Part shown: positions 20,925 to 47,240 of the stretch, piece by piece
Layout: every line of letters starts with the position of its first letter
Position numbering within the stretch: position 1 is the stretch's first letter
NCBI GenBank assembly: GCA_000004985.1
Contig: GG738892.1
Reading direction: 5' to 3' (one strand)
DNA length: 64,000 bases
DNA from: Naegleria gruberi
Taxonomy: Eukaryota
Translations under genes and position numbers: made by a program
The notes under the pieces: generated by a model
What the model was told of the DNA's origin: nothing
Database searches by the model: none
What the model saw: the letters and a program-made list of their open reading frames with translations, nothing else

Positions 20925-23900
20925 TTAAAGCTCCATAAGTACGTTTTGTCTTCTCCACAATTCTCTAAACATATCCTCACTAATAAGAACTTGACCACCA
21001 TGAGCAGCTGCTTCAATTCTTGCAGAAGTATTAATGGTTGTTCCATAATAATCTGGTCTTCTCATAGTCTTGTCAAATATTTGTTCTGCTTGCCCAAAAT
21101 GAAGACCAATCCTAACTCGCAATCCATTCCAAATTAATTCCTTTGTCTTTTCATTCCATTGAGTTCTACAATCCCATTGTTGAAGTAATTCAGGAGGCCA
21201 ATTACATGCCATCAAATCATGTTGACAGGCAATACTCCAATCCAAAGCATCGACAGCACTCTTGAATACCACATAAAAACTATCACCATTTGTCTTGACC
21301 TCAAATCCTCTGAAGGCTTCCAAATTCTTTCTGAGAACTTCATTGTGTAATTTCAAAGCTTCTCTCATGGCCTTGGCATCAGCTTCCCAAAGAACAGTGC
21401 TATTTTGAACATCTGTGAATGCACAAGCAATATTACCAGTCTTTGGAGCATATGTTGTGTTTCCTTGTCTTGTCTTGAGATATCTCCAATATATGATACC
21501 AATACATCCTAGAATTGAGAAGAATATTACAAGAGATAGAACAATCATTGCAATTTGAAGCTTAGTGACTGCTGGTGGAACAATGGCAACTCCACATGTA
21601 CTAAATGAAAAATCAAAGGAAATATCAGTGAATGAAGTTGTACCATTCTCAACATTGAGAGAAGAGAGCAAAACAGATCGAGGTCCTTGATTGCAATCAC
21701 AAGAGCTACTTGCTGATGAATAACTAGTTGCACAATCACCTGTTGCAACAGTGATATTGGCTACATTATTAGTTGAGGAACATTCCAAACCAAATGGGCC
21801 CATAGTTGTTAGTCCAGCAATATCGTAAACATAATTTGAAAAGATTGTACTGAAGAAATCAGGTAAGGTAACAGTGGAGGTAAATTTTTCTTGATAAATT
21901 CTGGTAAAAACAGTTTCCAAAAAGAAACCAAACAGGTAACCTTCCAATGTTTCATGAGTTGCTGGTTCAGAATATTGGTAATTGGCTAAAAATTGATTGA
22001 TAAATGTCTTTTTCTTTTCAGATTGAATGGTTTCAACACTGCTACAGACAGATTCCTGTTTGACAACTGGAGCAATATTGATTCTAGGCACAATGAGGAA
22101 ATTTGTGGACATGTCAGGATGTTTGGTATATAAATTATTCAATCCCTTTTCAAACAGTAAACTATAGGTCTCTGAAGGAATAGCAATCTTGATGGTCGGA
22201 TTAAAACTGAGAATAGCCTCAATCCAAGATATTGATTCTGTTTCATGAGCAAGAATAATGACTGCCTCAATATTTTGATTGGAAAGTTGGATTGCAGTTG
22301 AGGTTGGATTACTCACAACATCAAAAACTTCCAATCCAACATCATAATTCTCAATATATTCCTTAATGGATGGTATTGTTTTTGTTGTATAATATCCAAT
22401 TGGTGAATAGAGAATTGAAGCTTGTCCGTAGGTTTGCTTAAAATATTTCATTTGGGCAATTACTTCATCAAATACTGATGGTCTCCAATTAATAAAGTAT
22501 TTAGAGTATGGTTTTCTATATTCTAGCGAACCAGCCAAGACAAACATTGGAATTTGATACTTTTTCAAAATATCCGTCACATTTCCATATTGATCAACAC
22601 TCAATCTCAAATTACTTCCAAAAAAGCCAAATACACCCTGTTTTGTGGAAAGGGATTGTAACTTGTATTCGAGACCATATTTCTCAACTTCTCCAGAAAA
22701 ATATTCTGTGTGAATTTCAATTTTTTGAGATGCTTTGGAATTGTAAACAGTGAGATAGGTTTGAAGACCTCTTGAATAGGCATCATATGAATGAGGTGCC
22801 TCAGATATCAAATCCAATTTTCCTGCCTTTGTGGAACTGTCATCATCATAGGGAATAAGACGACCGAATATAATTGGTTTTGAAATTACACTAGAAATGG
22901 AATCTGCCAATCCACTTCTTCTATAGGTTCCCTTATAATCTTGGAATGCACAAGAAGCTGTATCATATTGTTTGGTAAATGTCTCAGTAAAAACAGATCC
23001 GGAATAGGAGTATAAAAACCCAGTTCTCAATCCCAAATTACATGGATTGGTGGCAGATTTAGAAAACGCTCCAAAAGTTATACCAGTTTCAGATTCCTTA
23101 ATTACAGATTGAGTATAGACATAATCCATAAACGATTTTTTGGTAATTTGATTTCCCACTGTATCCACTATTGTGGTAATAAATTTTCCAATATAATAAC
23201 CTTCCAAAGTTCTTTTGTGTGCCCAAACTGATGAATCCGAAGGATAGTAATCCTTGATTACCTTGTTAAACTCTGTAACAAATGAATTTGAGCTTGATGA
23301 AAATGATGGGATGTGAGAAACATAGAAAACTTGGAATGGAGAGGATGGATTCACGTTAGCTGCTAAGAATGATTTCATCTTGGTTTCTACATGATCAGAA
23401 AAATAAGAATTAATCAGATAAATACTCAATCCCTTTCTGAAAACTGGATTGGTTGTGTAGGTGAGCTGAATCTTTGAAAGTATAGATACAATGCTATCAT
23501 AACTATCAAAGAGAGTAATGAGTAAAACTTGTGGATTGGCATTACTAGTCAATTCATCAATGATTGTATCCAATGATTTAAGGCCTGAATCTGAATTGAT
23601 GATAGAAGATTGACTGTCAATATTCAAATTAATAATATTCATCATGGTGGAAAATGTTTGGAAAGCTTCACTTGAATACGGGCAATCAGGTTTGTAAATA
23701 ACACTCATTCTAGATTGAGCTTGTTTCATACTATAAGTAATTAAAGTTCCCAATTGTTCTGTCAATGTCAAGTGTAAATTCATAACAGGAGAATAGAACG
23801 AGCTCCTAAGAGTTCTCAAATTTGTAGCAGCAATCACACTAGCAATATCTGAATACTCACTGTTTTGTTTGATATCAAGAGTTTGTGCATTATTAATTCC

Positions 23901-26202
23901 ATCCAAATTGAGTACACCCTCTGTGAAACCAACCAATGCAACAGATTCATGCAAATTCTTTAATTCTCTTGTGTTGAAGAGAAGTGAACTAGAATCGTTG
24001 TGATAAAGAGTTTTCAATTCGATTTGCAATTTGTCAGAGGAAACTTTGGAATTTCTTCTCTTGAAAGCAGCTTGAATTCCCTTTCTTAACATTTCATCTT
24101 GAAGATTTTCTTTTTCAATGGATTGACCAAATATTATTGGTTTCTTGAGAATGGATGTATCTGAAATGCAAGATCCATATTCGTACCATGAAAGTTGTTT
24201 AAAAACTGAGAATGAAACATTGGAAACGTATGGTGTTTTTCCAATATTAACAGAACTCAAATAAACAATCTTGAGTCCTTGATTGCAATTTGAAGCACAA
24301 CTAACAGATGTTGCATTGGCAGAGAATGGTAAATATTGATCATAGACATTGGCACTTTCACACCATTTGAAATTGACCTTGGTTCCATCAAAAACAAATG
24401 AACCACCATTATTAGTCTCAGAATTACCTGCAGTATAATCAATGTAAGATGTTGCAATAAAATTTGATCTTGTTAAATCACCTATAATAGTTTTGAGCAT
24501 TGAATAGGCAAGCTTTCCAGTCAAATAACCCTCGAGTTCAATAAATGTTGGTTGAAAGGTAGAAACGTCCTTTCCAGTTGCTTTCAGATAAGCCTTTCTA
24601 GCTCTGTGATAAGACCTCACAACTGGTACTGTCAAATCCATTGGACTCGGCACGACTTGTGAAATGATAACATTATCCGTATAATATGTCGATGCAAATT
24701 TTAAAGAAGGCAAAGGGGATTGATTCAAATCATCAGTCAGGGCAGCACTTCCAACAAAACTAACTGTCAAGAATATCATTTCACTTGCCTTTTCATATCC
24801 GTAATTTGTTCCGTTAGCAGAGAAGGCCACATTCTTTACCATTTTGATATATTTTGAAAGTGGAGCATACGTTCCAACAAGTACAATTGCCTCAGGATTA
24901 CACTTTCCAATCGTATAGAAGGCATCTTCAACTGCCAATGTATTTCTAGTGTACAGACCTGTAGAGCAGAGTGAAATGTTCATTCGTGAGACGAGGGATC
25001 TGTTAATTCCGTTAAAACCAGCAATACCAAAGGCATCATTCTGATACATGATACTAATTCTTCTGATGAGTTTGGTATTTACAAGCCAATCAACCATGGC
25101 AGCAGTTTCATCATCATACGAAGCTCTCAAATTAATAACATTTGGATAGAAAGGTGTTCTAAGCCAACCAACTCCAGTGAATGAACCAAGAAGTGGAATG
25201 GAAGTTTTAGTAACATCTGGAAAGACTGCACTAACAGTTGGTGTTCCTATTATATCAATATTCAATTCATTAATAACATGTATATGGAGGAATAAATAGG
25301 TGATGATGGTAGTTTAGATTAAATAAGAACAGAGGAACTGTTACTACTTACCAACATATCCAATTAATCCAAATATTTTACTAACATCTACACTTGTAAT
25401 AAATTGAGGAGATGATGAGTTAAGGTAAGGCTGATAAATAAGCGAGCTGGTAGGGGGTGTTGTATTATAGAGAAAGAAGTCGGTATTAATCTTTGTATTG
25501 GTAGGCTCATAGGCATCATCTAATTGTACAATTTTATCACATGTTTACATTATTTTCATCGTTCATGTATTCAATGTATTCAATACCCAAAACATAATAA
25601 TATAAATTAAATACCGACCGAACAACAATATTACATACCCAAAGTTAAGAGTTTCAGCTTTTTGTTATTCCAAACTCCTCCCATAGAATTAACTTCTTCA
25701 AAAGCCGCTAAAATTCCATCTCTCATTTCAGTTCCCAATCTAAAGTAACAATATCATGAAGAAAGAAAGTATATTAAGGGAATTTCAAAAATAATTACAT
25801 GTTCTTTCCAATGCATAGAACTTACTTTTTAGAAAGGCCAGTGAGTGGAGCTGACTGTGCAAACCATATTTCCTGTTCGTTATTCCACAGCACAGTGTCT
25901 TCCCAAGGTCGTTTCGGCGATATTGCTGTTGTTGACGACGAGCCGTTCAGTTCGACCATTATTAAAAGTGTTACTAGGAGGAGGATTGATATTGTTGTGA
26001 TGAAGGAAGAGTAGAATGCTCTGAAATGTTGCTGTTGTGGTCTTCCTCTTGCTGCCTGATGATGAGAATGAGGTAGGCTGTTAGAGAGGCACTTGGCCTT
26101 ATTTAACCTCAATATGTCCACTCGTTGTAGCATGTTGAGAGGTGGTTGCAGTGTATGTTTTTTGTTGGGTTTCTTTTTGCGTGTATCGAAAAGGATATTC
26201 AC
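20925..26202 (-). CDS. Receptor-type class III nucleotidyl (adenylyl/guanylyl) cyclase. It has a very large periplasmic-binding-protein type I (ANF-receptor-like) ectodomain, a single TM and a C-terminal cyclase domain. Proposed exons are about 25826..26100-26202, 25639..25739, 25352..25519 and 20925..25246.
   Basis: C-terminal catalytic motifs FTDVQNSTVLWE, FEVKTNGDSFYVVF and GTTINTSARIE. TM helix IAMIVLSLVIFFSILGCIGIIYW lies about 25 aa before the catalytic domain, with no kinase-homology domain. Upstream exons encode a signal anchor (FITTISILLLVTLLIMV) and the PBP N-terminal signature LGTEMRDGILAAFEEVNSMGGVWNNKKLKLLTL-DDAYEP. All junctions are GT..AG with consistent phase. The 5' start is uncertain. 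Confidence 0.75.
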
Positions 26203-28048: not shown

Positions 28049-31000
28049 ATGTCCAATCAAACCAAGATGGATCTTTCCATCGCTGAGAGAAGAGCCTACG
28101 AATTTCTTCTCCGTTCTGAAGAAGCCAAACGTTGGATTGAAGAAATGATTCAGGAAAAATTCGGTCAAGGCTCATCCATTGCCTACTTTGGTGAAATGAT
28201 GAGAGATGGTGTGGCCCTTGCAAAGCTCGCCAAAATTTTCGCGCCAACCCACGTAAAAAAAATCAACAAGCCTAGTCAGAATGCGATCAAGTTGGAATTT
28301 TCCTTGGTTGATAATATTACTCAATTTTTGAATGCTTGTAAATCAACTGGTTTTAGAGAGATTTATCTTTTTGGTATGTTTTGTTTTTTTGAAGTGATTT
28401 TTATTCATATTTGTATTGTTTACTTGTTGTGTGTATTGATAATTTTTGTGATGATGACTACTTGTTATGATTCATATGAATGATGGTTGTGTGATATGAT
28501 GATGATTGATGATAATATAATACTACAATATAGAGGTTACCGATTTGTGGGAATTGAAGAATGTTTACAAAGTGGTGCATTGTCTCCATTCACTTTCTGT
28601 TTACTTATACACAAATGGTTTGTCAATCAAGATGGAAAGACTCAAGTCACTCAATATTTCTAGGGAAGATTTGGAACGTACAAAGAAAATGCTTGATGAT
28701 TTGGAAAATTCTGGTATCAAATTTGATGATTCCATGATTGAAGGTGATGAAGGTGAAAGTAGCGAAGATTGTGACACTGATGTTAGATCAGACAAAATTA
28801 GAGAATACGTCACTAGTTTGGCCGATCCAGATCATTGTAAAGTAGATGGAGATAAGTTAAATTCAGCCATTTGTGGTGTGGAATCAAAATTCACAATCAC
28901 AGCTTTTGATTCAGATGGTAATTTATTAAAGGGTTGCCAAGACAAATTTGAAGTTCAATTGCAATCAGGATCAACAACATTCAATGCAAACGTCAAAAAT
29001 AATAGAGATGGTACTTTTGAAGTGAGCTACACTCCTCAAGTTGCTGGTGACTATGTCATGACCATTTCTCTCTTTGATGATGAATTGGGTGATGTTGTAG
29101 GTAACATTACAAATAAGAATGCATCAGATGGTGCTTGGAAAGTCAAGATTACAGCAAACCCTGTTTCTGATCTATCAAAATGTGTACTCAAACAACAAAG
29201 AGATAATGCCAAGAGAGTATATAGAGCTGGTCAAGTTATTGATGATCTCATCTTGGAAAGTAGAGACTCATGCGGAAATATTGGTCTTGGAGGTGAAAAA
29301 TTCGCTGCCAAGCTCATTTCCACTGTTGACAAGTCTGTTGTTTTCAATTCTAATGTTTTGGACAATAAGAATGGTCTCTATCAATTCATCTTCCAAATTG
29401 AAAGATCTGGTTCTTATGAATTGGAAGTTACTCGTGGTGATGAATACCTCTCCTCAACTCGTATTCCAGTCTCAATTCATGATTCTGGTAAGACTGATCC
29501 AAACAATTGTCTCTTCATTGGATTGGAAAGCAATTTGCTTCACTTGCTTGAAGATAATGGCAGCGAGTCCAACAAGGTCTTATCTTTGAGAAAGAAGGAA
29601 AATATTGTTAAATTGGAAAGAAAGGCAGGCGATGTCATTAGATTCTTGGTTCAAGCTCGTGACCAATATGGTAACAATCGTGAAGTTGATGGAACTAATG
29701 AATCCACTCTTCCACAACTCGTCTCTGAACAATTGACTGTTATTGCTTGTTTGGAAAGCTCTGATTCACCAACTATTGAAAATATTGACTCTGTTTTGAT
29801 GACTCCAAGAACTGCCATGGTTGCCAAGAAACTTGGTGAATCAGGTACTCAATCCGATGGTGTTGCTGTTGATTCTACAATTGTCAAGATTCCACACATG
29901 AAGAACGACTCTGAATTGAGTGTATTGTTGGGTCTTGAACAATATGCCCAAAAGTTCAATGGTTCTCAAGAAATGGAAAAGAAACTCTTTGAAACCATGT
30001 CCAAGTTTGTTTCTGAAAATGGTCATCACGGTTTGTACCTTGTTGAAACTAAATTGGTCGAAAGTGGAGACTATTCTTTGCAATGTAACTTGTTACAAGG
30101 AGATTGTACTTCCACATCAACTGCCGAAACTGACTCTGAATCCAAATCAAAGCCAACTCTCTACGCTGTTGGTCCAGCTCACACTGTTCACATTACTGAT
30201 AATGGTCTCACTGATGCTAGTCAATGTGCAATTGTTCAAAGTTTCTCCAAGGGTGAAAGTGTTTCCAATACTGTTGTTGTTCCAAACAGCTCACTCAAGT
30301 TGGATCTCCAGAAGGATGATTATGAAAATCCAGACAATTTTTCCGATACTTTCAAAAAGTTCCATGCTGGTCGTGAAATGCACATTATTGTTCAAGCTCG
30401 TGACAAGTTTGGAAATGCTCGTAACATTGTAGAAAGTGATGAATTCTTATTGAAACTCACTCCAAAACAAAAATCAGAACAATCTACTGAAGTTATTCCA
30501 GTGTCTGCCTCCTCACAAAAATTCGTTCAAGGAAAGGGTCTCTTTGAAATTGTCTACACTGCCAAGATTGCTCAATCATACTATATGGAATTGGCATATG
30601 TTGACAAGTCTAAACTTGCTCCAGAAGTCACTGAACAAGAAAAGGCAGCTGCTGCTCAATTGATCAAATCATTCCCACAAGAAATTACTGTCACTGATGC
30701 TGCAATTACTGATCCACACAATCTTTTATTCTCTGGTACTGGTATTACTAATGCTGTTCAAGGAAAGGAAAGTTTCTTTGTTTTGAGAATGAGAGATGAA
30801 TTTGGTAACTTGAGACACCAAGGAGGAGATGATGTTAAGGCTACTCTCATTTCTGATGCTCGTAAGCTCGAATCTGCTGCCGAAGTTATTGACAATAAGG
30901 ATGGTTCATACACTGTCAAGTATGTTGCTAAGGCCTCCGGTAAGAATCGTTTCGAAATTGTTATCAATGGTCAACTTGTCAAGAATAATGACATTTTGGA

Positions 31001-33383
31001 TGCTGGTGTTTTCGTTTCACCACCAAATATTGAAGATGCAAGCAATGTTGAAACTATTCTTGATCACGATTTACTCTCTGCCCTCATGAATGCTTTCCGT
31101 GTTGAACAAAAGACTGATAACTTGGTTGAACAAATCCAAGCTCTCAGACAAGAATTGGTTAAACAACTTCGTGAAAACACCAAGATTAGTACTGATGTCA
31201 GAGATAAGGAAAGAAAGATTGCTCTCCTTGCTGAAAACAAGTATCGTGCTGAAGAAATCATGAATCAAGGAAAGAGTGGTATTATTGGTTACTTCCAACG
31301 TCGTAAGACTATGCAATTCGGTGGACCTCTTGGAATTACCTCTGCTGCTGATGCCATGATTAAGGAAAATATCAGTCTCTATGGTAACTTGTTCTACTTG
31401 CTTCAAACTAATCCAAAGTATCTTGCCAAGTGTATTTTCCTCGTTCCTGCATCAGATGTTGATCAATTCCTCAATACTGTCACTTTGACCTTGTACGGTT
31501 ATGCTTTCAATCCTCGTGAAGAATATTTGATTTTGAACTTGTTCAATGAAACTCTCCAACTCGAAGTTAAGAGTTCCACATTGGAAAGTTTCTTGTCTGG
31601 TAACCCAATTCTCATCAAATTGTTGATTACTTATTGTCACGAAAGAATTTCAGGAAAGACCTTCTTGCAAAAGGTTTTGTACGACAAGATTTTGGATCCT
31701 ATCCTCGAAGAAAAGGATCTCAACTTGGATCTTAACCCAATCAGTCTTCTCCGTGATATTGTCTCTCAAAAGGAAGTTGAAACTGGTATCAAGAGCAATA
31801 TTGACTTTAAGGAAATGACCTATGAAAAGGCTATGGAAGCTGATGAAAATGTTCGTAATGCCATCAATTCTAGAAAGAACAGCTTGATCAAGATTTGTGA
31901 ACAAATTCTCAATTGTATCTATGATAACATTCCTGAATTGCCATATGGTTTACGTTTCGTTTGTCGTCAATTGAGAACTTTGCTCATGCAAAAGTATCCA
32001 AATCACGATGATGAAAAGAAGATTAACCAAGTCATTTCATACGTTCTCTTCTTCCGTTATTTGAACGCTCCACTTTGTACTCCTGATGGTTACAATTTGA
32101 CAAAGAAGAAGATTTCTCCACTCATGAGAAACAATCTTGCCCTCATTTCAAAGGTCTTGTTGAGAATTTCTACCTTCAGAGAATTTGAAGCCGTGGATAC
32201 TCACATGTTAATGATGAACGAATGGATTCGTGACAATATTCCATTGTTTAGCCAAAAGTTCTTGACTCCAAGTTTGGAAATCGTTGAACCAGAAGAATAT
32301 CTCGGTGTCAATCAATATGCTGAACTTACTCAAAAGAAGAATCCAAGCATTACCATTACTATTAATGAAATTGCCCTTACTCACTCTCTCCTTGTCAAGT
32401 TCAGCGGAAGAATCATCCCAACTGGTGAAGCTGCCGATCCACTTTCTGACCTCCTCACTCGTTTCAAGGATAAGATTCCAGAACAAGTTGAAACTGCCAA
32501 GAATGAAGAAATTACATTGTCTCTTGTCCCATTCAGTGTCAATGGAAAGGCTGAAGCCACTGATGACTGGCTCACACTTTCACCAGAACAATTGTACGAA
32601 GTTACAAAGGAAAATGTTAGAACTATTCTTCGTTACATTACTCCACTTCAATTGGGAGAAACCGTTGAGGATACCTTGTCAAAGTCTGACTCTTATGCTG
32701 ACGAAGTATTGAAGAATACTGAAAATATTGACAATGAAGTTGCTGGTTTGACAATCAAGAGAAAGGTCGAAGAAATTCGTAAGGCCCTTCCAAAATTGGA
32801 TGAAGCTCAAATCATTACCAAGGAAAATCACTACCGTAAATTGTTGATCGATATCACTAAGGAAATTCAAAATCGTGAAGAACTCCAAAAGAAGCAACAA
32901 AAGGAAGTGGAAAGATTGAAGGAAAGTTTGAACAGTTTGAGATCATATCACTCATTCTTGAAGGACAAGGATGTCAGCTTGGATGAATACGTTCAACAAA
33001 CTCTCAGAAACTATTTCAAGAAGCAAGAAAAGAAGAAGCAAGAATCTTCATCCAAGAGCAACAAGGTAAAGAGCTACAAGTTCAGCTATAAGGATTTGTC
33101 TGAAAAGTACAAGATTATCCACGACATTCAAGAAGGTTCATTTGGTACTCTCCAAAAGAAGGTTATCAAGTTTACAATTTCAATGAACGAAGGAGAACCA
33201 GGTGTCTTCTCAGTTTGTCCAACACTTGCTGGTAATGTCATTACTACTCTCCAACTCAGATTGGAAGATTTGCTCGATAAGCGTGAAAAGGGTCAAGAAC
33301 ATCTCAAGATTGAAGGTGTTGTGCTCAATGTCAACATGACCATTCACTTGCTCAATAAGAAATTCTTATCAAAGAATTAATTT
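28049..33383 (+). CDS. Large cytoskeletal/RasGAP protein with an N-terminal calponin-homology domain, several filamin-type Ig repeats, and an IQGAP-type RasGAP (GRD) plus RasGAP_C region. Exons are 28049..28373 and 28534..33383, with a 160-nt intron at 28374..28533.
   Basis: CH domain AYEFLLRSEEAKRWIEE...DGVALAKLAKIFAP...LFEVTDLWELKNVYKVVHCLHSLS spans the GTATGT..ATAG intron. Repeats carry filamin hallmarks such as DGTFEVSYTPQVAGDYVMTISL and GSYTVKYVAKASGKNRFEIVING. The GRD region reads YLLQTNPKYLAKCIFLVPASDVDQFLNTVTLTLYGYAFNPREEYLILNL. The C-terminus is coiled-coil and K/E-rich. Confidence 0.75.
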
Positions 33384-36921: not shown

Positions 36922-38188
36922 ATGTTCAAAATGGATGATACGGAGAGGGATATAGGAGAACCTTCTTGTAAAAAGAAAAAATTAGAATTTTTGAGTGCTT
37001 ATCATGTATTTAATAGTGATGAAATTTTGGAAATATTATCGTTCATTCCGAAGGATAATGTTAAATTTATTGTAATGAGTTGTGGGTTGGTTTCGAAACA
37101 GTGGAGGAATGTTGTTGTGGAGTATTCGAAACTAGATGTAACAATTGTAGATTACAAATTGTTGGAAGATTTGAAGGCTAGTCATCATTTAAACAATATT
37201 GAAACCTTACGAGTTGGTAAAATTGTACCAAATGATGTTTTTTATCAAGTTGCTGGCTTGATAAAACATTTGACGAAACTTGATGTTTGTAATTGCCAAA
37301 TTGGAGCCGAAGGAGCTAAATGGGTTAAAAATTTTGAACAATTAACTGATCTCGACATTTATGGTAATCTAATTGGTGATGAAGGAGCTGTATTCATTAG
37401 TGAAATCAGTTGACTATTTTAAATATTGCAAAAAATTCAATAAGTGCCACTGGAGCCAAATTCATTACTCGACTGAACCAATTGACTAGCCTTAATATCG
37501 CCTGGAACTTTGAATTACAATTTGAAGGGATAAAACCAATTTGTCAAATAATGAAACAGTTGACCACTTTCGGTATTGGAAGAATTGCTGTGTTCGATGA
37601 GGGAGCAAAATTTATCAGTGAAGAAATGAAACAATTGACTAACTTGGATATCAACAGCAATATGCTAGGTTCAGAGGGAGCAAAGTACTTGAGTGGAATG
37701 GAAACTTTAAGAGTACTCAATATTGCTGCCAATGATATATTTGATGAAGGGCTAAATATATTAGTGGAATGAGTCAATTGACTGATTTGAGAGTACAGGG
37801 AAGTGAGTTAGGTTTCGAAGGTGTAAAACATATTAGTGGAATGAAACAGTTGACAAAACTTAATATTGGCTGGAATAAGATTGGATATGAGGGGTTACAC
37901 TTTCTTAGTGAAATGAATCAATTAACCAGTATTTCCTTCGAAGTTGGCAAGGACGAAAGTTTGAAAATTGGTATTAAAGAGGCTAAATCATTAAGTGAAA
38001 TGACCCAATTGACCTTCCTTAATATTTGTGGCCATAAATTAGACTTTGAACAAGCCAAACTCATTTCCTGCATGAAACCACTGAAAATCCTTCACATCAC
38101 AAGCAACGACATTTCCACTGAAGAAGAAAAAACACTGCACGATATGAAACAGTGGGAATGTTTAAAAATTTACAAACGTTCCAAATAA
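36922..38188 (+). pseudogene. F-box-like and RNI-type leucine-rich-repeat protein gene interrupted by two frameshifts. It is either a pseudogene or carries sequencing errors.
   Basis: Three consecutive ORFs in frames +1, +3 and +2 (36922..37413, 37410..37772, 37769..38188) all encode the same roughly 28-aa repeat (MKQLTxLxIxxNxIGxEGAKxIS). At about 37415 the repeat AGTGAAATGAAACAGTTGAC lacks 4 nt (agtgaaat-cagttgac). At about 37750 GAAGGGGCTAAA has lost one G (gaagggctaaa). The N-terminus has an F-box-like LEILSFIP...CGLVSKQWRNVV. Confidence 0.6.
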
Positions 38189-38338
38189 ATTAACAATGTC
38201 TCCCATTCATCATTCCTTACTGTTTCATCAAAATCCCTTCTTAACAATATCTTTAGATTTTTCAGAAATGAGACATTGAATGTTGATGATTTACTTCCTC
38301 CGATATTTTCAAACGTTTTTTTTGATTTTTTAAAAAAA

Positions 38339-40287
38339 ATGAAAAGAAACTTTCCCGCCAATTCTCTCGTAGTTTTTATATTGTTGGTGGCTCTTGCTTC
38401 ATCATCATTCCAACAACAAGAAACCTCTTCGGTAACAGTCTATAGTAAGAATAATTATATTCTCAATTCGGAGGACTATTTGAAAGGAGCTGCTGTTGCT
38501 AGACTTGTCGATTCTGTTCAATTGAATGGCTGGTCTCAACTCAATATTTCAACCAATGCTAATTTATTTAATGATGAAGAACAAATGTATGCTGCTGGTA
38601 TGGCTGAAGGATTAGTTTCCTCCTATCAAACCTGGCAACTTCTTCAAAATCAAATTTATGATTGGAATTTCACGGAAAGTACTGGAAGTGTGAAGAGAAC
38701 TCCATCATCAAATTATGTTTATCCAAAGGGAATTATTAATTTCCTTACACAAAATAATGCTTGGATGAGAAAGGAAGCTATTCAAAGAAAGGATCATTGC
38801 AAGTTTTGGTATCATGTCAATTTGATGATGACTCAATTTGATGGTCTTGTGGATGGTTTTTTGATTGGACAACAACGTGATTCTCGTATTCCTGCAAATA
38901 AGTATTTGGATTGGTTTGATTTGTTGGTTTTGCAAGGTATGTTTTTTAGTATTATTGTTAATGTTTAATAATTATTTCAATGCATTTCGCATGATAATTT
39001 TGTTATTGGATTCGGAATATTACATTGGAATATTGATGATTTTAAATTGAAATTACATGAAAATGGTTGAAATATATGGAATAGCTGCTGGTGATATGTA
39101 CACACTTGTGGATGCTTTTGGAAGCTCATTGATGAAGTCTTCTCTCAAGACTCGTGCTGAAGCTTTTGCATCTGGTATTCCTTTGGAAGTTTTCCAATCT
39201 AATGCCTTCACTAGAAAGTATAAAGAAGAGCCACCATACACTGAATGTAGTGCTCTCATTAAGGTTACACCAGATTGTAAAAACATCTTTGTAGGTCACA
39301 CAACCTGGAGAAGATATAACATTATTAACAAGTTCTTCAAGACTCTCACAATGCCACTCAAGTTTGTTGCTGCCAAGACTGTCAGTATGAGTTCTTCTGC
39401 CAGTTTCTTCTCCTCTAAGGAAGATTATTTGGCTATGGACTCTGGTTTGGTTGCTTTGGAAACCTCTCTCAGTACCTACAATACTTCATTGTATAAATTG
39501 CTCAAGCCAGAATCATTACTTTCATGGGTTAGAAGTGTTGTTGCCAGTAGATTGGCTTATACTTCAAAGGAATGGATTGATACCTTTGCTAAATTCTCCA
39601 GTGGTACCTAGTAAGTTTTCTCAATTCATTCACAAAAATATTTAAATGAATAGCAACAATCAATGGATGAGTTTGGATATGAAGAAATTCAAGCCAGGTA
39701 CTTGTCAATTGGAAAAGGATACCTTATGGATTATTGAAGAACTTCCAGGAGGTGCCAATCAAAATGCTGACGTTTCATCAATTGTAAATTCCAATCAAGG
39801 TTATTGGCCAAGTTACAATATTCCATACTTCCCAGAAATTTACAACATGCTTGGTTATGCTGAAGCAAAGAAAAAGTTCGGAAATGAAATGGATTATAAA
39901 TTGTGTCCAAGAGCTAAGATTTTCGCTAGAGAACAATCCAAGATTATCAATGATTGGAAATCATTTGGAAGAGTTTTGCAATTCAATGAATGGCAAATTG
40001 ATGAATTCAGTGAAGGAGATCCAGCTAAATCAATTGCTGCTCGTTACGATTTGAGACCTACCAATGGTCAACTCAAACCAGCTGCATTTGGTGGTGCTGA
40101 TACTAAATTGACCAGTTACAGACACGTCATGAATAGTGCTACTGGTAAACCTGTTACTTTCGGTATGGCTGGTCCAACTCACCAAGAACAAGCTCCATTC
40201 ACATGGAATGATAATCGTTGGAATTCAATTCCACATTTGGGTCAACCAGACACTTACGATTTTGACTGGGTTCAATTCAACAATTAA
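38339..40287 (+). CDS. Phospholipase B-like (PLBD/LAMA family, Ntn-hydrolase) protein. Exons are 38339..38937, 39086..39610 and 39654..40287, with introns at 38938..39085 and 39611..39653.
   Basis: Signal peptide NSLVVFILLVALASS. PLB-like N-domain, then the conserved autoproteolysis/nucleophile context YTECSALIKV and GHTTW. The frame is preserved at both GTATGT/GTAAGT..ATAG junctions (LVLQ|AAGDMYTL and SSGT|YNNQWMSLD). The C-terminal domain has PAAFGGADTK..TFGMAGPTH. Confidence 0.75.
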
Positions 40288-40385
40288 AAATTGCACTCTC
40301 ATACTTAGTTTAGAATTATTAAATTCTTGTTTAAATGGTTGAATTAATATTGACCTACTCAGATTCATAAAATAACCTAGTGTCC

Positions 40386-41393
40386 TTACAGCACAGTACA
40401 ATTCCAAGAATTATTTTCAGTTTTCTGTGGTGATGGTTCTTGAATTAGTGTCCAATCTTTCAATTGTTGGAAATAGGTAAATTGCAATTGAACGAACCAA
40501 AATGGAGTAAACACATTCTTCATATCCTTTGAATTAGCCTGTACGAAGATTGATTGCCGGAATCCAAATGCCTTTTTCACAGCCTCCTTTGGGTTGACCA
40601 TCTCAGTAACTTGAACATTTGAGTACAAGCCAAGAATAATGCCCAGATGTGGTTGTTTTAGAACCTCTTTAACTGCCTCAAACCATTTATCCAAATCATC
40701 AAGTGTTTCCTTTCGATTCATTGCAAAACAGATAAGAAAATTCAACCATGAAAGCCTTCCCAATTGCTTTACAACTCCAGTCGAAAGGTATCTTTCCTGT
40801 CGAGCAGTATCCCATATTTGATGTTTAAACGCTTCCTCACCTCTAAGAGGAGCAAACGCCTTGACAATAAAATCAACCATTGAGTGAGAATAATTGTCAA
40901 AGTGTCCATTGTTCATTGTCTTTGAAAAGGTTTTCTTTCCAACAAAAGCATCACCTACAAGCATGTACTTGATGGTGTTGTTGTTGGAATTTATGAGCTT
41001 GGGTTTCTCATAAGAAGGACGAAATCTAGATCGATAAAAATCCAATAAATTAAATTGACTTTCTAATACGTGCTCAACGTTTTTTGAATCTTTTTGTTCT
41101 GATGGATTAATATTACCCAATCTAAATGCCAATTGTAATAAATACATTCGAATGAAATACTTTGAATTTCCAATCAACGAAATTTTGTCCGATTCATCTT
41201 CAATATTTCCATTGGAAGAAGAAATTGAAATTTTACATCCCAACAAATTTTCATCACACCTTAAAATTTCATCCACATAAACCCAACATTTTCCCACCAC
41301 TTGATAAATTGCTTGGTTAGTTCCCACTAGTGAAGCAAGCACATCAATAGGATGCAAAAATTGAATAACTGTGGTCCAAACATCTTGATTCAT
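40386..41393 (-). CDS. F-box-like domain fused to an atypical Ras-superfamily (Rab-like) small GTPase domain.
   Basis: N-terminal DVWTTVIQFLHPIDVLASLVGTNQAIYQVVGKCW resembles an F-box (LPxEIL..I...L....DL.....VCK.W). The GTPase has P-loop LVGDAFVGKKTF, switch II WDTARQERY (Arg in place of the usual DTAGQE Gly), a degenerate NKxD (AMNRKE) and ANSKD. The ATG at 41393 follows an A9 run. Confidence 0.6.
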   Translation of the reverse strand: MNQDVWTTVIQFLHPIDVLASLVGTNQAIYQVVGKCWVYVDEILRCDENLLGCKISISSSNGNIEDESDKISLIGNSKYFIRMYLLQLAFRLGNINPSEQKDSKNVEHVLESQFNLLDFYRSRFRPSYEKPKLINSNNNTIKYMLVGDAFVGKKTFSKTMNNGHFDNYSHSMVDFIVKAFAPLRGEEAFKHQIWDTARQERYLSTGVVKQLGRLSWLNFLICFAMNRKETLDDLDKWFEAVKEVLKQPHLGIILGLYSNVQVTEMVNPKEAVKKAFGFRQSIFVQANSKDMKNVFTPFWFVQLQFTYFQQLKDWTLIQEPSPQKTENNSWNCTVL

Positions 41394-41957
41394 TTTTTTT
41401 TGATTGTAAAAATAAAAATTTACAGTAATAAGCAACAAGATTTTTATTTTGTCATGAATCATCTTGTATTAAGATGTTGATGTGATCTGGGAGAAAATAA
41501 ATTGTGCAATGTGCTCATTGGGACAAATTTTAAAAGTTGTAACTAGTTAAGGAACATTGAGGGGAATGGATTAAAAACTTGTGAAGCAAGTTTTGACACT
41601 TTCTACCAACCAAGTGGGTGTTGTCCTTTAATATTAAGGACATAATTCAACTTGTCCTTTTTCTATCTAAAAAAATACAGTGGATACAATTTCTTTAGAA
41701 TCATCATCCTCACCAACCCAATAAAACAAAACAACATTCCAAACTTTGGAAGTTGATCCTTCCCAAATTCAAAATGACAAAGAGAAATACTTCCCAGAAC
41801 TATTTGTTGAAGATGAACAAGATGTAATCATACAAATTAGTCAAAAGTCAGATTGAAGAATTGTCTATTTTTATGTAGAATTGGACTGCTATAACATTTA
41901 TATTCCATATTTGACAATTTTCCATTAAAACAATTTTTTGTAAATTCAATCAAAAAA

Positions 41958-42440
41958 ATGCTTCGTTCCAAAATCACTTCCGTTTGCTCATCACGACAAT
42001 TTATTAATTCCTTCGGCAAATCCTCATTATTTCCATCATTAAACACAAAATTACATAATTTCCATTCCTTACAAAGTAACCGAAAATCAAACTCATCCGA
42101 TATTGATGCAAAATCCATCATTAAATCTATTAAAGTCCCAGAAATGGGTAATGGTATTAGATCCGCAACCATTTCCCGATGGAAGAAACATCCAGGTGAT
42201 GAATGTGATGGTTCTGATGTGTTGGCTGAATTGGAGATGAAGAATTCTGATATGAAATTATTGCTCGAGTTGAGACCACCTGTTAAGGGACAAGTGAGGG
42301 AACATTTGAAGAATGTTGGAGATGAGGTGATGGTTGGAGAGAAGATTGCAACCATGGAAACGTTGGATATTGATGAGGAAAGTAGATTGAGACATGTTGT
42401 GGAGGATGCTATCATTGATGTTCATGTTTTACCTAAATAG
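41958..42440 (+). CDS. Small mitochondrial-presequence protein with a lipoyl/biotinyl-attachment-like (hybrid barrel) domain.
   Basis: The presequence MLRSKITSVCSSRQFINSFGKSSLF is rich in R, S and hydrophobics. The domain IKVPEMGNGIRSATISRWKKHPGDECDGSDVLAELEMKNSDM...VGDEVMVGEKIATMETLD follows the lipoyl-domain pattern (IxMPxLxxxxEGTIxxWxKKxGDxV..GDxLxEIETDKA....EGDxVxVGxxIAxIE), but the modified-lysine context is altered (EMKNS rather than ETDKA). The ATG follows an A7 run. Confidence 0.45.
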   Translation: MLRSKITSVCSSRQFINSFGKSSLFPSLNTKLHNFHSLQSNRKSNSSDIDAKSIIKSIKVPEMGNGIRSATISRWKKHPGDECDGSDVLAELEMKNSDMKLLLELRPPVKGQVREHLKNVGDEVMVGEKIATMETLDIDEESRLRHVVEDAIIDVHVLPK

Positions 42441-42526
42441 AGATGTGGATAGAATAAATTAATGGAAAATATAGTTTAATATTAAACTATTTAATATTTA
42501 CAGGTTTTAGGTTGACTATTAAAAAC

Positions 42527-43827
42527 TTAAGGAAGTGAAATTGTTGAAATTGGAGTGTTTGGTTCACTATCGATGGATATTGAAGAATTGGAAAGATTAT
42601 GGAAATTATCTTGATTGGAGGCAGTTAGGAATGTTCCAAATTGTTGGTGATTACTAGTATTGGTAGTGTTTGGTGACATTTCAATTCCTTTTGAGTTTTC
42701 CAAAGCTCTATTTGTTTTGTGTTCAAAGTTGACTGCCTTAATGGCATTCTTGACCATCCTTTTCATTTCACTGATAGGTCCAAAGAGGATACACAAACCA
42801 ACAATGAAAATCCATGTAGCAATTGCCTTTCCAATTAACGAAACCACTTGAAAGTAAACTGAAACATTCGAAACTTCTCCTATAAACGAAATCAATTCCA
42901 TCAAACACAAGAAAACAGCAATCAAAGCAACTAAACTCACAATGATAACAATTCTAATAATTGCCTTCTTACTAGTTTCCTTCAAATAATGTCCAGAATT
43001 TTCACTACTTTGTTTCAAATGTCTGATTAGCTGAACGGTTGTCCAAATTACATAACCCAATGAAGAAAGAACACATAGAATGAAGATAGTTGTTGTCAAT
43101 GAATAGAAAAATATAAGAGCTGGTTTGATGGTTGTGTCATTGGTTGCTTGTTGAACTTTTGTTATTTGGTCAACTAGCACAGTAATGATATAACCTATAA
43201 TCACCACTGAAAGAATGATAGGAATGGTAATTATCGATCCAAGAAGAATCTTGAATACCTTTTCTGAAATGTATTTCAACTTCCTGCTCGTTTGCAAACT
43301 ATTTCACATTTAAAACAATTCTAATCTTAAACTAAAACTTACAATATATAACAAACAAACAAGAACTGCACCACCAACCACCAATCATTCACAGCCCATC
43401 CACAATAAATCAATGCATTAATCACTCTCACATGGAGTGGTTTCTCAGAACTGACAAAAGTCGCCACAGGAAAAGCCAACATGTTTAAGATTCGTAAAGC
43501 AAATAAAATGATCAAGATTACAACACTAGGTAACATGATAGAGAAGAGGATGATCTTGTTTTTGGAGAAGGGCCTTTTGGGTTTGATAGGAGTTGAAGAA
43601 GGATTGTTTTCGTCTGGTTTCGTTTTTTGGCTTGCTTTTGATTTGTGTTTAAAGCAGATTAGGAGGGTAAGAATGAATGGAAGGAGAATAATGAAGGATA
43701 GCATTTGAATGAAGGTTACCGAAACCTCGCCAATGATTTGCGCAGTGGACACTGTTTCGTTTAAAGAAGAAGAATTAGATGAAACAGCTTGTATTATGAA
43801 CAAATCAACTAATGACGACATTTTCAA
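42527..43827 (-). CDS. Seven-transmembrane receptor-like protein. Exons are 43344..43827 and 42527..43297, with a 46-nt intron at 43298..43343.
   Basis: Three hydrophobic helices in exon 1 and four in exon 2, seven in total, with loops of GPCR-like length and a Ser/Asn-rich C-terminal tail. The GTAAGT..AATAG junction keeps the frame (VCYI-F-LQTSRKLKY). I cannot assign a family. Confidence 0.5.
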
Positions 43828-46465: not shown

Positions 46466-47240
46466 TTACAAGAGATTGCAACCCTTCTTCTTTCCACTCT
46501 TGGTATCCTTTCCGACTGGAGTTGAAGGCTTTGACTTTCTAACTTCACGAACGAGGGCCATGAAAGCTTCATCAACGTTCAATCTTTGCTTGGCTGAGGT
46601 TTCCAAACTTGGGATGCTCAATTGCTTGGCAAATTGTTTACCTTCATCAGCACTGATGACTCTTTCAGATTCCAAATCACACTTGTTACCAACAAGAACC
46701 ATTGGGACTTTATCAGCATCCTTGACTCTCAAGATTTGTTCATAGAAATCATTGATTTCTTCAAAGGTCTTTCTGTCAATGACAGAGTAAACCAACAAGA
46801 AACCATCACCAGTTCTCATGTATTGATCTCTCAAAGCCTTGTATTCTATATAATAATTTATGTATCATCATCATAATAATATTGTTGTTGCCGGTTAATA
46901 ACAAAAAGTAAATATTTTCAAAAACAAACCTTCTTGACCGGCAGTATCCAAGATTTCCAAGAAACATGGCTTGTCATCAACTTTAGCGTGCTTTCTATAA
47001 GAATCTTCAATAGTTGGATCGTATTCTTCAACGAAGATGTTTTGAATGAATTGGACAGTCAAGGCACTTTTACCGACACCACCACCACCGACTAGAGAGT
47101 TGTATTAAATAATTATTCAAAGAAAGTTAGAAGAAAGCATATACGAAAGGTTGAAAGTTAACGTTAGAGAAGGTGAATATTTTGTTTTACATACCAACGG
47201 CGAGCTTGTATTCTTCCATACCAGAATTGTTTGAAGCCAT
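46466..47240 (-). CDS. Ras-family small GTPase, R-Ras/Rap-like, with CAAX box CNLL. Exons are 47195..47240, 46930..47091 and 46466..46855, with introns at 47092..47194 and 46856..46929.
   Basis: The spliced product reads [49 protein letters not shown]...[32 protein letters not shown]...[10 protein letters not shown]...[23 protein letters not shown]...KKKGCNLL. G1-G5 are all canonical. Junctions are GTATGT..CTAG and GTTTGT..TATAG with consistent phase. Confidence 0.85.

Follow-up and report, generated by a model that had tools for sequence, protein, structure and literature searches.

A CaaX-ending member of the Naegleria F-box/Rab-like family with degenerate guanine-nucleotide motifs

The gene, its paralogs and their published status

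The gene at 40386-41393 lies on the minus strand of the window (the whole 64,000-nucleotide stretch of Naegleria gruberi contig GG738892.1 that was analysed). The ORF is real: its product is identical in 335 of 335 residues (100%) to N. gruberi XP_002673286.1/EFC40542.1 (P0151), which is annotated as 'rab family small GTPase', and 335 stop-free codons would arise by chance with P~1e-11 at the local base composition. A longer version, beginning at an in-frame upstream ATG at 41462 or supplied by an upstream exon, was considered and rejected because the 23 additional residues are not conserved and occur in no paralog, while every paralog starts with M-x-Q-D-x-W and the RefSeq model likewise begins at MxQD. 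No upstream exon is needed, and the earlier note's concern that one might place the N-terminal region in a different domain falls away. The features of the gene are as follows.

40386-41393, minus strand: complete single-exon coding sequence from the ORF listing, 335 amino acids plus stop (40386-40388)
41289-41393, minus strand: F-box-like N-terminal domain, residues 1-35 (MNQDVWTTVIQFLHPIDVLASLVGTNQAIYQVVGK), with family-level profile support
41184-41288, minus strand: variable spacer, residues 36-70, with 24% mean paralog identity; contains the site of a 2-bp deletion in an environmental allele
41019-41183, minus strand: conserved helical linker, residues 71-125, with 46% paralog identity; family-specific
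40470-40979, minus strand: Rab-like G domain, residues 139-308 (Pfam Ras; alignment to Rab11 3bfk, as for the five motifs below)
40932-40955, minus strand: G1, GDAFVGKK, residues 147-154
40869-40892, minus strand: G2 region, YSHSMVDF, residues 168-175, lacking Thr
40794-40811, minus strand: G3, DTARQE, residues 195-200
40617-40631, minus strand: G4, GLYSN, residues 255-259
40527-40541, minus strand: G5, QANSK, residues 285-289
40389-40400, minus strand: CaaX box, CTVL, residues 332-335, from the sequence

The family to which this protein belongs comprises nine loci in N. gruberi and at least one in N. lovaniensis. Full-length homologs (25-42% identity, E 1e-54 to 5e-15) were confined to Naegleria in an exhaustive HMMER search of 1.84 billion representatives, which returned no pan-eukaryotic Rab-subfamily ortholog. 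Word-indexed searches added almost nothing to the HMMER set and did not recover a N. fowleri ortholog; 142 pattern matches in JGI metagenome contigs contained no confirmed relative. Family members share an N-terminus of the form M-x-Q-D-x-W...FLEPIDVLASL, linker helices marked by KYFIRLYLLKL and LLNFYR, a divergent G domain, the motif PFWFIQLQ.TYF and a CaaX box. In full-length alignment the query fits this layout of the Naegleria CaaX subgroup of F-box/Rab-like proteins, and the fusion of F-box-like and Rab-like parts proposed in the earlier note is thus an architecture conserved across the paralogs. Conservation is not evenly spread. The F-box-like region is the most conserved part of the protein (56% mean paralog identity, compared with 46% in the linker and 29% in the G domain), and 14 of the 17 invariant family columns fall in F-box and linker (six of them in the linker), the G domain holding the other three. 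This gradient would fit a constrained adaptor end joined to a recognition end that is free to evolve.

The family and its architecture have already been published, and the present gene is an unexceptional member. Additional files 4 and 10 of Herman et al. 2021 (BMC Biol 19:142) describe divergent Naegleria-specific Rab-like genes with a conserved N-terminal extension in some of which an F-box is identifiable; Table S8 includes XP_002673286.1 and, beside it, the paralogs XP_002670760, XP_002681067, XP_002672868, XP_002672932, XP_002669889, XP_002670133, XP_002673455 and ACER01000495. In the same account these genes are 'lacking discernible close relatives outside Naegleria', one subgroup has a conserved CaaX, and evolution is of the birth-and-death type, some genes of the clades being disrupted. 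The authors see the family as likely to act 'at the organism-environment interface' and suggest a link to ubiquitin ligases ('GTPase-dependent ubiquitination' in Naegleria generally is offered as speculation). The F-box is also reported as the commonest extra domain on Naegleria Ras-superfamily GTPases (Rab, Rho, Ran, G-alpha). With the family listed in 2021, the arrangement is not unusual in Naegleria, contrary to what the sequence had suggested, and fusions of an F-box with a GTPase have been described from Euglenozoa and Legionella too. In Table S8 the query's subgroup is without the label 'F-box', and its degenerate G motifs go unmentioned in the cited passages. What is added here is statistical support for an F-box-like N-terminus in the CaaX subgroup, the loss of its guanine-nucleotide motifs and a possible natural frameshifted allele. 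A literature search found no paper in which 'pseudoGTPase' and 'F-box' appear together.

The allele comes from a metagenome contig (L001) that is N. gruberi-like and 98.3% identical to the window over 4.6 kb. Around 41256-41259 it has a 2-bp deletion (AAGGTGTGATG becoming AAGGTGATG) that shifts the frame and cuts the protein after residue 45; given such an allele, the gene may be dispensable. The frameshift is present in a single metagenome contig and might be an assembly error. The remaining differences between the alleles are four synonymous and two non-synonymous, similar to those in neighbouring genes (at least four of six being synonymous has a probability of ~0.03 under neutrality).

The F-box-like region and the linker

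F-box similarity is significant at the level of the paralog family and not for the query sequence alone. Pfam F-box models match neither the query nor its N-terminal 52 residues, even at E<=10, nor four of its seven homologs, and an HMM made from eight true F-boxes finds no match among all ORFs of the window. On the other hand, the N. lovaniensis homolog (a 'F-box domain-containing protein' by its UniProt name) scores 23.0 bits against Pfam PF00646 (cut-off 20.5; E=7e-5). Two further homologs, P0004 and P0005, match the same model with E-values of 0.02 and 0.18, the paralog-family consensus scores 19.7 bits on Pfam F-box (E=8e-4), and F-box families are the sole Pfam matches to this region of the homologs. 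Profile-profile alignment (hhalign) of the family N-termini with eight verified F-boxes gives a score of 23.3 (P=1.1e-4) in the correct register; none of 300 column shuffles reaches it (mean 8.4, sd 1.8, maximum 14.9). The F-box-like motif that the earlier note saw at the N-terminus thus has its statistical support in the family, not in this sequence taken by itself.

Binding to Skp1 commonly needs the Leu-Pro dipeptide of the F-box. Leu-Pro is invariant in the eight reference F-boxes and missing throughout the family: the aligned positions are Met1 and Asn2 (or Tyr/Ala/His), and no member has Pro. In sister subgroups of Naegleria Rab-like proteins the corresponding position is occupied by a canonical F-box with LP, and the linker that follows is weakly similar. 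The query itself departs from family-conserved F-box residues at three places (E8T, E14H and L23V) and at nine sites elsewhere; a total of 12 is mid-range for the paralogs (5-40).

Structure prediction is of too low confidence here to speak for or against the three-helix fold of an F-box. The full-length AF2 model, made with an eight-sequence family alignment, has a mean pLDDT of 52, falling below 40 in the N-terminus, and a model of residues 1-135 has a mean pLDDT of 54 and a pTM of 0.38. In both runs residues 1-40 lie at about 35-55 (the N-terminal part below 55), and the helices proposed near the N-terminus differ (4-12, 19-22 and 29-32 in one run; 3-23 and 27-34 in the other). Foldseek with the N-terminal model returned nothing below E=5. 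The family N-terminal profile, searched against all PDB sequences, met no F-box protein; chance matches to viral fusion peptides appeared at E~1.

Beyond the spacer, the linker (residues 71-125) is characterised by the motifs GNSKYFIRMYLLQLAFRLGN (75-94) and FNLLDFYRSRF (114-124) and is without a Pfam match. Helices at 74-93 and 103-124 are predicted by both AF2 models, with low confidence. In hhalign the N-terminal 135 residues are weakly similar, across the linker, to a sister subgroup whose F-box is canonical (score 18.7, P=0.028, reached by 2 of 200 shuffles). When full-length profiles were compared with two sister F-box/Rab-like subgroups in the Herman et al. 2021 table, the G domain alone aligned.

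The G domain and the C-terminus

That a small GTPase domain follows the linker is borne out by Pfam Ras PF00071 (57 bits against a cut-off of 21.6, E=2.2e-15; Roc at E=6e-9), by PDB sequence matches led by Rab11, RabA1a, Ypt6 and Rab12, and by Foldseek comparison with Ras/Rab structures (target-normalised TM-score ~0.74). Among Rabs, those of the Rab11/Ypt31 type come nearest to it.

Aligned with Rab11, the query departs from consensus in each of the five G motifs. The P-loop had been taken as intact; in fact the consensus GxxxxGK[S/T] ends here in Lys154 (GDAFVGKK), at the position of the Mg2+-coordinating Ser/Thr. The switch-I Thr is missing from G2. The Gly to Arg change noticed in DTARQE is present, and it falls on the DxxG Gly (Ras G60) rather than on a '+1' residue. 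Degeneracy of NKxD, also noticed before, extends to loss of N, K and D alike (GLYSN), and in G5 SAK has become ANS. Retained are the GxxxxGK backbone, the Asp of DxxG and Gln199. Thus intact G1, G2, G3, G4 and G5, the set expected of a functional GTPase, are not found in the query. Because every element for canonical GTP/Mg2+ binding and hydrolysis is lost, the domain is read as a pseudoGTPase: it is very probably GTPase-dead, in agreement with the earlier view of an impaired G domain, and the motif losses predict, short of proof, that nucleotide binding is lost as well.

The paralogs share much of this pattern. G2, G4 and G5 are missing in every one, and G1 and G3 vary freely, P0002 being the only paralog in which both are intact (GDTGIGKT, DTAGQE). 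The suggestion that the protein is a nucleotide-state-dependent adaptor is therefore unlikely: with five motifs broken in the query and G2, G4 and G5 gone from the whole family, a GTP/GDP switch is improbable. Architecture and pseudoGTPase assignment, taken jointly, are regarded as highly probable.

The protein ends in a single-cysteine CaaX box, CTVL, preceded by a conserved NSW(N)C, in place of the double-cysteine motif (CC/CXC; REP/RabGGTase) of Rabs, which is absent. Paralogs have CaaX-type endings as well (CSLL, CIIQ, CSLM, CSLQ and CSIY). By the established CaaX rule, Leu at X predicts geranylgeranylation by GGTase-I, and it is because of this rule that CTVL is predicted to be so modified.

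Comparable systems and the proposed role

TbFRP, a FYVE-F-box-Ras-like GTPase of Euglenozoa (Adung'a and Field 2013, PMC3593210), has its F-box upstream of a Rab-like G domain, as in the query. It is a protein of ~64 kDa with a G domain closest to Rab18, it is targeted to membranes through an N-terminal FYVE domain that binds PI3P where the Naegleria protein has a CaaX box, and no ortholog in N. gruberi turned up in the original study (PMC3593210). Euglenozoa and Naegleria are both placed in the supergroup Discoba. The likeness is one of shared domains by description.

Canonical G motifs are kept in Rab40. This metazoan Rab, fused to a cullin-adaptor box, is the substrate receptor of a membrane cullin-RING ligase (PMC8129794, PMC10509765) and parallels the role proposed below; its SOCS box is C-terminal and works with Elongin B/C-Cul5, whereas the F-box-like part of the Naegleria protein is N-terminal and would work with Skp1-Cul1. 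By analogy of function, RhoBTB3 is the nearest counterpart of a 'pseudoGTPase as ligase receptor': it is a Rho-related ATPase that combines a degenerate Rho-family domain, no normal GTPase, with a BTB cullin adaptor, is associated with Golgi membranes and targets substrates, cyclin E among them, for ubiquitylation (PMC3812982). It differs in using BTB/Cul3, in its Rho origin and in binding ATP (PMC3812982), as against the proposed F-box/Cul1 pairing and the Rab origin in Naegleria.

The best overall explanation, to which we assign a probability of about 0.55, is an adaptor of the SCF type, anchored to a membrane by prenylation, in which the pseudo-Rab domain serves as a nucleotide-independent binding module. 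Its four parts (F-box-like domain, two linker helices, Rab-derived G domain and CaaX box) would be used as follows. Geranylgeranylation of the CTVL tail would anchor the protein to a membrane, and the F-box-like domain would dock on Skp1/Cul1. A rigid helical linker, as in other F-box proteins, would position the pseudo-Rab domain; locked in one state, this could recruit a partner that recognises Rab-like surfaces, and the partner would then be ubiquitylated locally, independently of nucleotide state. The SCF mechanism as such is put forward tentatively, at somewhat less than even odds. If it is true, Naegleria has a Cul1/F-box counterpart of Rab40-Cul5 and RhoBTB-Cul3 that is pseudoGTPase-based and has undergone lineage-specific expansion, and offers a natural system for the reuse of dead GTPase folds as ligase receptors.

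Within a birth-and-death family, the gene could instead be a copy that is decaying or can be dispensed with, its ORF looking intact, its function no longer maintained and its motif losses reflecting drift. Five broken G motifs out of five, departures from family consensus at E8T, E14H, L23V and nine other sites, the environmental allele truncated after 45 residues and disrupted members in these clades (Herman et al. 2021) all lend this some colour. We nevertheless consider it unlikely: all 335 codons are intact against chance odds of ~1e-11, the 12 departures are mid-range among the paralogs, and the 4:2 ratio of synonymous to non-synonymous differences resembles that of flanking genes and has a neutral probability of ~0.03. 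CaaX box, linker and the alpha5 motif 'PFWF.QLQ.TYF' are moreover kept, Table S8 as published shows no pseudogene flag for this entry (Herman et al. 2021), and the frameshift comes from one contig that may be misassembled. Doubt might equally be directed at the N-terminus, which could be a family-specific helical module with a partner other than Skp1, making the protein a prenylated pseudo-Rab scaffold unconnected to ubiquitylation. The homolog above the Pfam gathering threshold, the exclusivity of F-box families among matches to the region, the profile match in correct register that no shuffle equals, the UniProt name of the N. lovaniensis homolog and the LP-containing F-boxes of sister subgroups, at the same position and next to a weakly similar linker, make such a module doubtful, even when the silence of Pfam on the query and four of seven homologs, the family-wide lack of LP, the PDB profile search free of F-box proteins, the uninformative AF2 and Foldseek results and the unlabelled subgroup in Table S8 (Herman et al. 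2021) are set on the other side.

Two further explanations concern what the G domain and the F-box would do. Nucleotide might be bound non-canonically (Mg2+-independently with Lys154, for example, or as ATP), making SCF substrate recruitment nucleotide-dependent after all. The retained GxxxxGK backbone, DxxG Asp and Gln199, the P0002 motifs GDTGIGKT and DTAGQE, the ATP binding of the degenerate Rho domain of RhoBTB3 (PMC3812982) and the speculation on 'GTPase-dependent ubiquitination' in Naegleria (Herman et al. 2021) speak for this. It is judged highly improbable, given Lys in place of the Mg2+-ligand Ser/Thr, loss of the switch-I Thr, Arg for the gamma-phosphate-sensing Gly and complete loss of the guanine-specificity box NKxD (its N, K and D) and of SAK; the absence of G2, G4 and G5 from all paralogs, with G1 and G3 free to vary, is also unlike a conserved nucleotide switch. 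In yeast the F-box protein Rcy1 has as its partners Rabs of the Rab11/Ypt31 type, the type that the query's G domain most resembles. By analogy the F-box might act in a non-SCF Skp1 membrane complex devoted to recycling, or else in cis on the protein's own rapid turnover, the authors of TbFRP having tied its F-box to rapid proteolysis of TbFRP itself (PMC3593210). Both readings are given a low probability; against them stands the combination of a rigid conserved linker with a variable distal domain, which appears to be the usual layout of a substrate receptor.

Returning to the SCF-type adaptor, a more specific version of it can be framed, as a long shot: the CaaX subgroup would consist of SCF-receptor decoy Rabs displayed on membranes, capturing proteins that grab Rab surfaces and delivering them to ubiquitylation as an innate-immune 'bait'. 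Legionella infects amoebae, and its effectors target host Rabs. Effectors of such intracellular bacteria would be candidate targets. Were this true, it would account for the birth and death of genes in the family and for an adaptor end that is conserved next to a G-domain surface that is not constrained.

Fusions of an F-box, or of a peptide resembling one, to Rab-like domains have also arisen elsewhere. Legionella itself has Rab-like effectors with F-box or U-box (Gomez-Valero et al. preprint), and our own search found a Mortierella alpina protein (KAF9272495.1, P0013) in which a Rab11-like domain is preceded by an F-box-like peptide at the N-terminus, sub-threshold on Pfam F-box-like_2 at 18.9 bits (cut-off 21.6). 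Both are independent fusions without full-length relation to the query, with which they align in the G domain only. The Mortierella G domains keep the canonical motifs GDSGVGKS, DAAGQE and NKSD, unlike that of the Naegleria protein.

Gene, neighbours and paralog family

The gene occupies a stop-free minus-strand ORF (40386-41462) in a window that is AT-rich (~34% G+C), with few introns and long ORFs. Its 335-residue protein starts from the second ATG, at 41393, just after a run of A; the chance of 335 stop-free codons at the window's base composition is P~1e-11. It matches XP_002673286.1 of Naegleria gruberi NEG-M (EFC40542.1, D2VRY2), annotated in the database as "rab family small GTPase", at all 335 residues, so that the window is nuclear DNA of N. 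gruberi and the gene coordinates of the earlier note are those of the RefSeq model. Features of the window are:

Gene models and ORFs in the window
11289-17348, minus: very long uninterrupted ORF, 2019 aa (ORF listing)
20925-25265, minus: very long uninterrupted ORF, 1446 aa (ORF listing)
28545-33380, plus: very long uninterrupted ORF, 1611 aa (ORF listing)
38276-40287, plus: phospholipase-B-like gene (PF04916), a neighbour, in three ORF segments
~39611-39653, plus: a short intron of that gene, ~43 nt, canonical GT..AG (GTAAGT...TAG)
40386-41393, minus: the gene analyzed here
46466-47062, minus: canonical Ras-family gene, ~5 kb away, coding sequence split by at least one intron

Another neighbour, a lipoyl-domain gene, lies beyond the upstream intergenic region.

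Exhaustive HMMER searching of 1.84 billion representatives finds full-length relatives in Naegleria only: six in N. gruberi (matches P0002-P0006 and P0009; E 1e-54 to 5e-15, 25-42% identity) and one in N. lovaniensis (P0012). Every other match covers the G domain alone, and no relatives were found in JGI metagenome contigs. Full-length alignment of the paralogs shows a fixed layout:

Layout common to the paralogs
N-terminus: consensus M-x-Q-D-x-W-x-E-I-I-Q-F-L-E-P-I-D-V-L-A-S-L-L
Spacer: variable
Linker: two conserved helices, GN.KYFIRLYLLKLA.KLGN and L.LL.FYR
G domain: divergent
Helix after the G domain: conserved, PFWFIQLQ.TYF
C-terminal end: CaaX-type (CTVL, CSLL, CIIQ, CSLM, CSLQ, CSIY)

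The family, which is specific to Naegleria, has already been published together with its F-box/Rab-like architecture, and this gene is one of its ordinary members. In a re-annotation of Ras-superfamily genes from N. gruberi and N. fowleri, Herman et al. (2021, BMC Biol 19:142, PMC8296547) describe in supplementary text a conserved CaaX motif in one Rab-like subgroup, and disrupted members of the Rab-like clades that are read as "birth-and-death evolution". Table S8 places XP_002673286.1 beside the exact paralogs recovered here, adds XP_002681067 (corrected model) and ACER01000495, and in the rows of this subgroup carries neither an "F-box" label nor a pseudogene flag. The same text names the F-box as the domain most often added to GTPases in Naegleria (Rab, Rho, Ran, G-alpha), its frequency being taken to point to GTPase-dependent ubiquitination; the fusion, which the earlier note had called unusual, is common in this genus. 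(What the present analysis adds is confined to family-level F-box statistics for the CaaX subgroup, an explicit pseudoGTPase call and a frameshifted environmental allele.)

The Rab-like domain

Pfam assigns residues 142-298 to Ras (57 bits, cut-off 21.6; E=2.2e-15) and also to Roc. The top solved-structure matches are Rab11, RabA1a, Ypt6, Rab12 and Rab43 (E 9e-11 to 2e-8), and the AlphaFold model of the domain fits Ras/Rab structures (TM-score ~0.74, target-normalised). The state of each nucleotide-binding motif was read off a residue-level alignment to Rab11:

G motifs, canonical and in this protein
G1: GDSGVGKS; here GDAFVGKK, Lys154 replacing the Mg2+-ligand Ser/Thr
G2: switch-I Thr of TIGVEF; here without counterpart (YSHSMVDF)
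G3: DTAGQE; here DTARQE, with Arg at the Ras Gly60 position
G4: GNKSD; here GLYSN, with Asn, Lys and Asp all gone
G5: TSA; here ANS

The altered switch II and degenerate NKxD that had been read from the DNA are both there; the P-loop, which had been described as intact, is not. A Ras-superfamily domain that has lost all five motifs is not expected to bind guanine nucleotide and Mg2+, or to switch, in the canonical way. Because all five are lost, sequence predicts that this is a pseudoGTPase, and since the G domain looks dead the nucleotide-state-dependent action that had been proposed is unlikely for this copy. The canonical Ras-family gene 5 kb off contrasts with it: its exons encode LDTAGQE and ...LVGNKCDL...ETSAK...KKKGCNLL, with G3, G4, G5 and a CaaX box intact.

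G2, G4 and G5 are present in no paralog, and P0002 alone has both G1 and G3 intact. Conservation is graded along the protein: paralogs are on average 56% identical over the F-box-like part, 46% over the linker, 29% over the G domain and 24% over the spacer, and the 17 invariant columns of the family fall mainly in residues 1-21 (8) and the linker (6), with 3 in the G domain. The missing motifs together with this gradient argue that across the CaaX subgroup the nucleotide pocket is unconstrained and that constraint falls on the N-terminal module. We assign a probability of about 0.85 to the description of this protein by its four-part architecture and a pseudoGTPase domain.

The N-terminal module

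Taken alone, the N-terminus gives no Pfam F-box match, even at E<=10, nor is it matched by an HMM derived from eight genuine F-boxes. The N. lovaniensis homolog, named "F-box domain-containing protein" in UniProt, passes Pfam F-box (23.0 bits against 20.5, E=7e-5) and just misses F-box-like (21.6 against 24.3); P0004 and P0005 reach E=0.02 and 0.18, and the family consensus 19.7 bits (E=8e-4). Profile-profile alignment of eight family N-termini with eight F-boxes (Skp2, beta-TrCP, Fbw7, Cdc4, TIR1, cyclin F, Grr1 and FBXO7; each verified as F-box by Pfam at E 1e-8 to 1e-21) has the register expected of an F-box (W6->L, FL->CL, TNQAI->VCKRW) and scores 23.3 (P=1.1e-4), against a maximum of 14.9 in 300 column shuffles (mean 8.4, sd 1.8). 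A family-profile search of PDB sequences found no F-box. Both AlphaFold runs are too uncertain over this region (pLDDT ~35-55), and a fold search with the model of the N-terminal part found nothing. The F-box signal is thus modest but real at the level of the family, and the region is F-box-like and probably homologous to the F-box; the F-box similarity that the earlier note had seen holds for the family, and in this protein alone misses every profile threshold. The Leu-Pro that is invariant in the eight reference F-boxes aligns with Met1-Asn2 and is absent from every family member, and the module may not be a functional F-box.

A sister subgroup in N. gruberi (XP_002670359, XP_002674580, XP_002671737 and XP_002675157, from Table S8 of Herman et al.) carries an F-box of canonical type, LP included, and retains GKT, WDxxGxER and TKKD. 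A weak resemblance between its linker (KFIRYLLRKQVYEFACKLA ... ELxILKG.F) and the CaaX-subgroup linker (hhalign P=0.028) hints at one F-box/Rab-like ancestor behind the three Naegleria subgroups.

Other F-box/GTPase fusions include TbFRP of Euglenozoa (FYVE-F-box-GTPase), whose authors found no Naegleria ortholog, and some Legionella Rab-like effectors. The homologue search also returned Mortierella alpina KAF9272495.1 (P0013), in which a Rab11-like domain follows an F-box-like N-terminal peptide (Pfam support is weak, a sub-threshold F-box-like_2 match); the unit is tandemly repeated and its G motifs are intact. A Logan contig (P0106) likewise joins an F-box-like peptide, which has no Pfam F-box match, to a Rab-like domain with intact G motifs. 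Such proteins in unrelated organisms suggest independent fusions.

Possible function and an environmental allele

The likeliest mechanism is that the protein acts as an SCF receptor, though we give it somewhat less than an even chance. By the CaaX rule, CTVL would be geranylgeranylated and the protein anchored to membrane; the F-box-like domain would engage Skp1-Cul1, the two conserved helices would form a rigid linker of the kind typical of F-box receptors, and the pseudo-Rab domain would recruit its partner constitutively, not by nucleotide state. Rab40-SOCS-Cul5 demonstrates that a GTPase-derived domain can serve as a cullin-ligase receptor, and in RhoBTB3-Cul3 a non-GTPase Rho domain does so on Golgi membranes; in the library searched, no paper combines "pseudoGTPase" and "F-box". 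Competing with the SCF-receptor mechanism are a residual, non-canonical nucleotide control by the G domain, and a cis-degron or non-SCF Skp1 role of the F-box. The original observation is confirmed in part, and its interpretation partly supported.

The gene could also be a decaying or dispensable copy. Locus L001 of metagenome contig ENA ERZ929261, which is N. gruberi-like, aligns over 4.6 kb with window 38081-43017 at 98.3% identity. Its copy of the gene has a deletion of 2 bp (AAGGTGTGATG -> AAGGTGATG; window ~41256-41259, codons 45-46, L001 ~1418) that stops translation after residue 45 and cuts the F-box off from the G domain, which is why the L001 protein is called from Met83. The allele may be a true pseudogene, or the deletion may be an error of assembly. 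Against decay, substitutions between the two alleles are 4 synonymous and 2 non-synonymous, much as in the flanking genes, and the 12 private departures of this protein from the family consensus are mid-range among paralogs (5-40).

Relative to the same contig, the first segment of the phospholipase-B-like gene has a 1-base gap. At window 41483-41890, ~330 bp of upstream intergenic DNA have no counterpart in L001, which has 76 bp there; this stretch, presumably part of the promoter region, differs either by an indel or by strong divergence.
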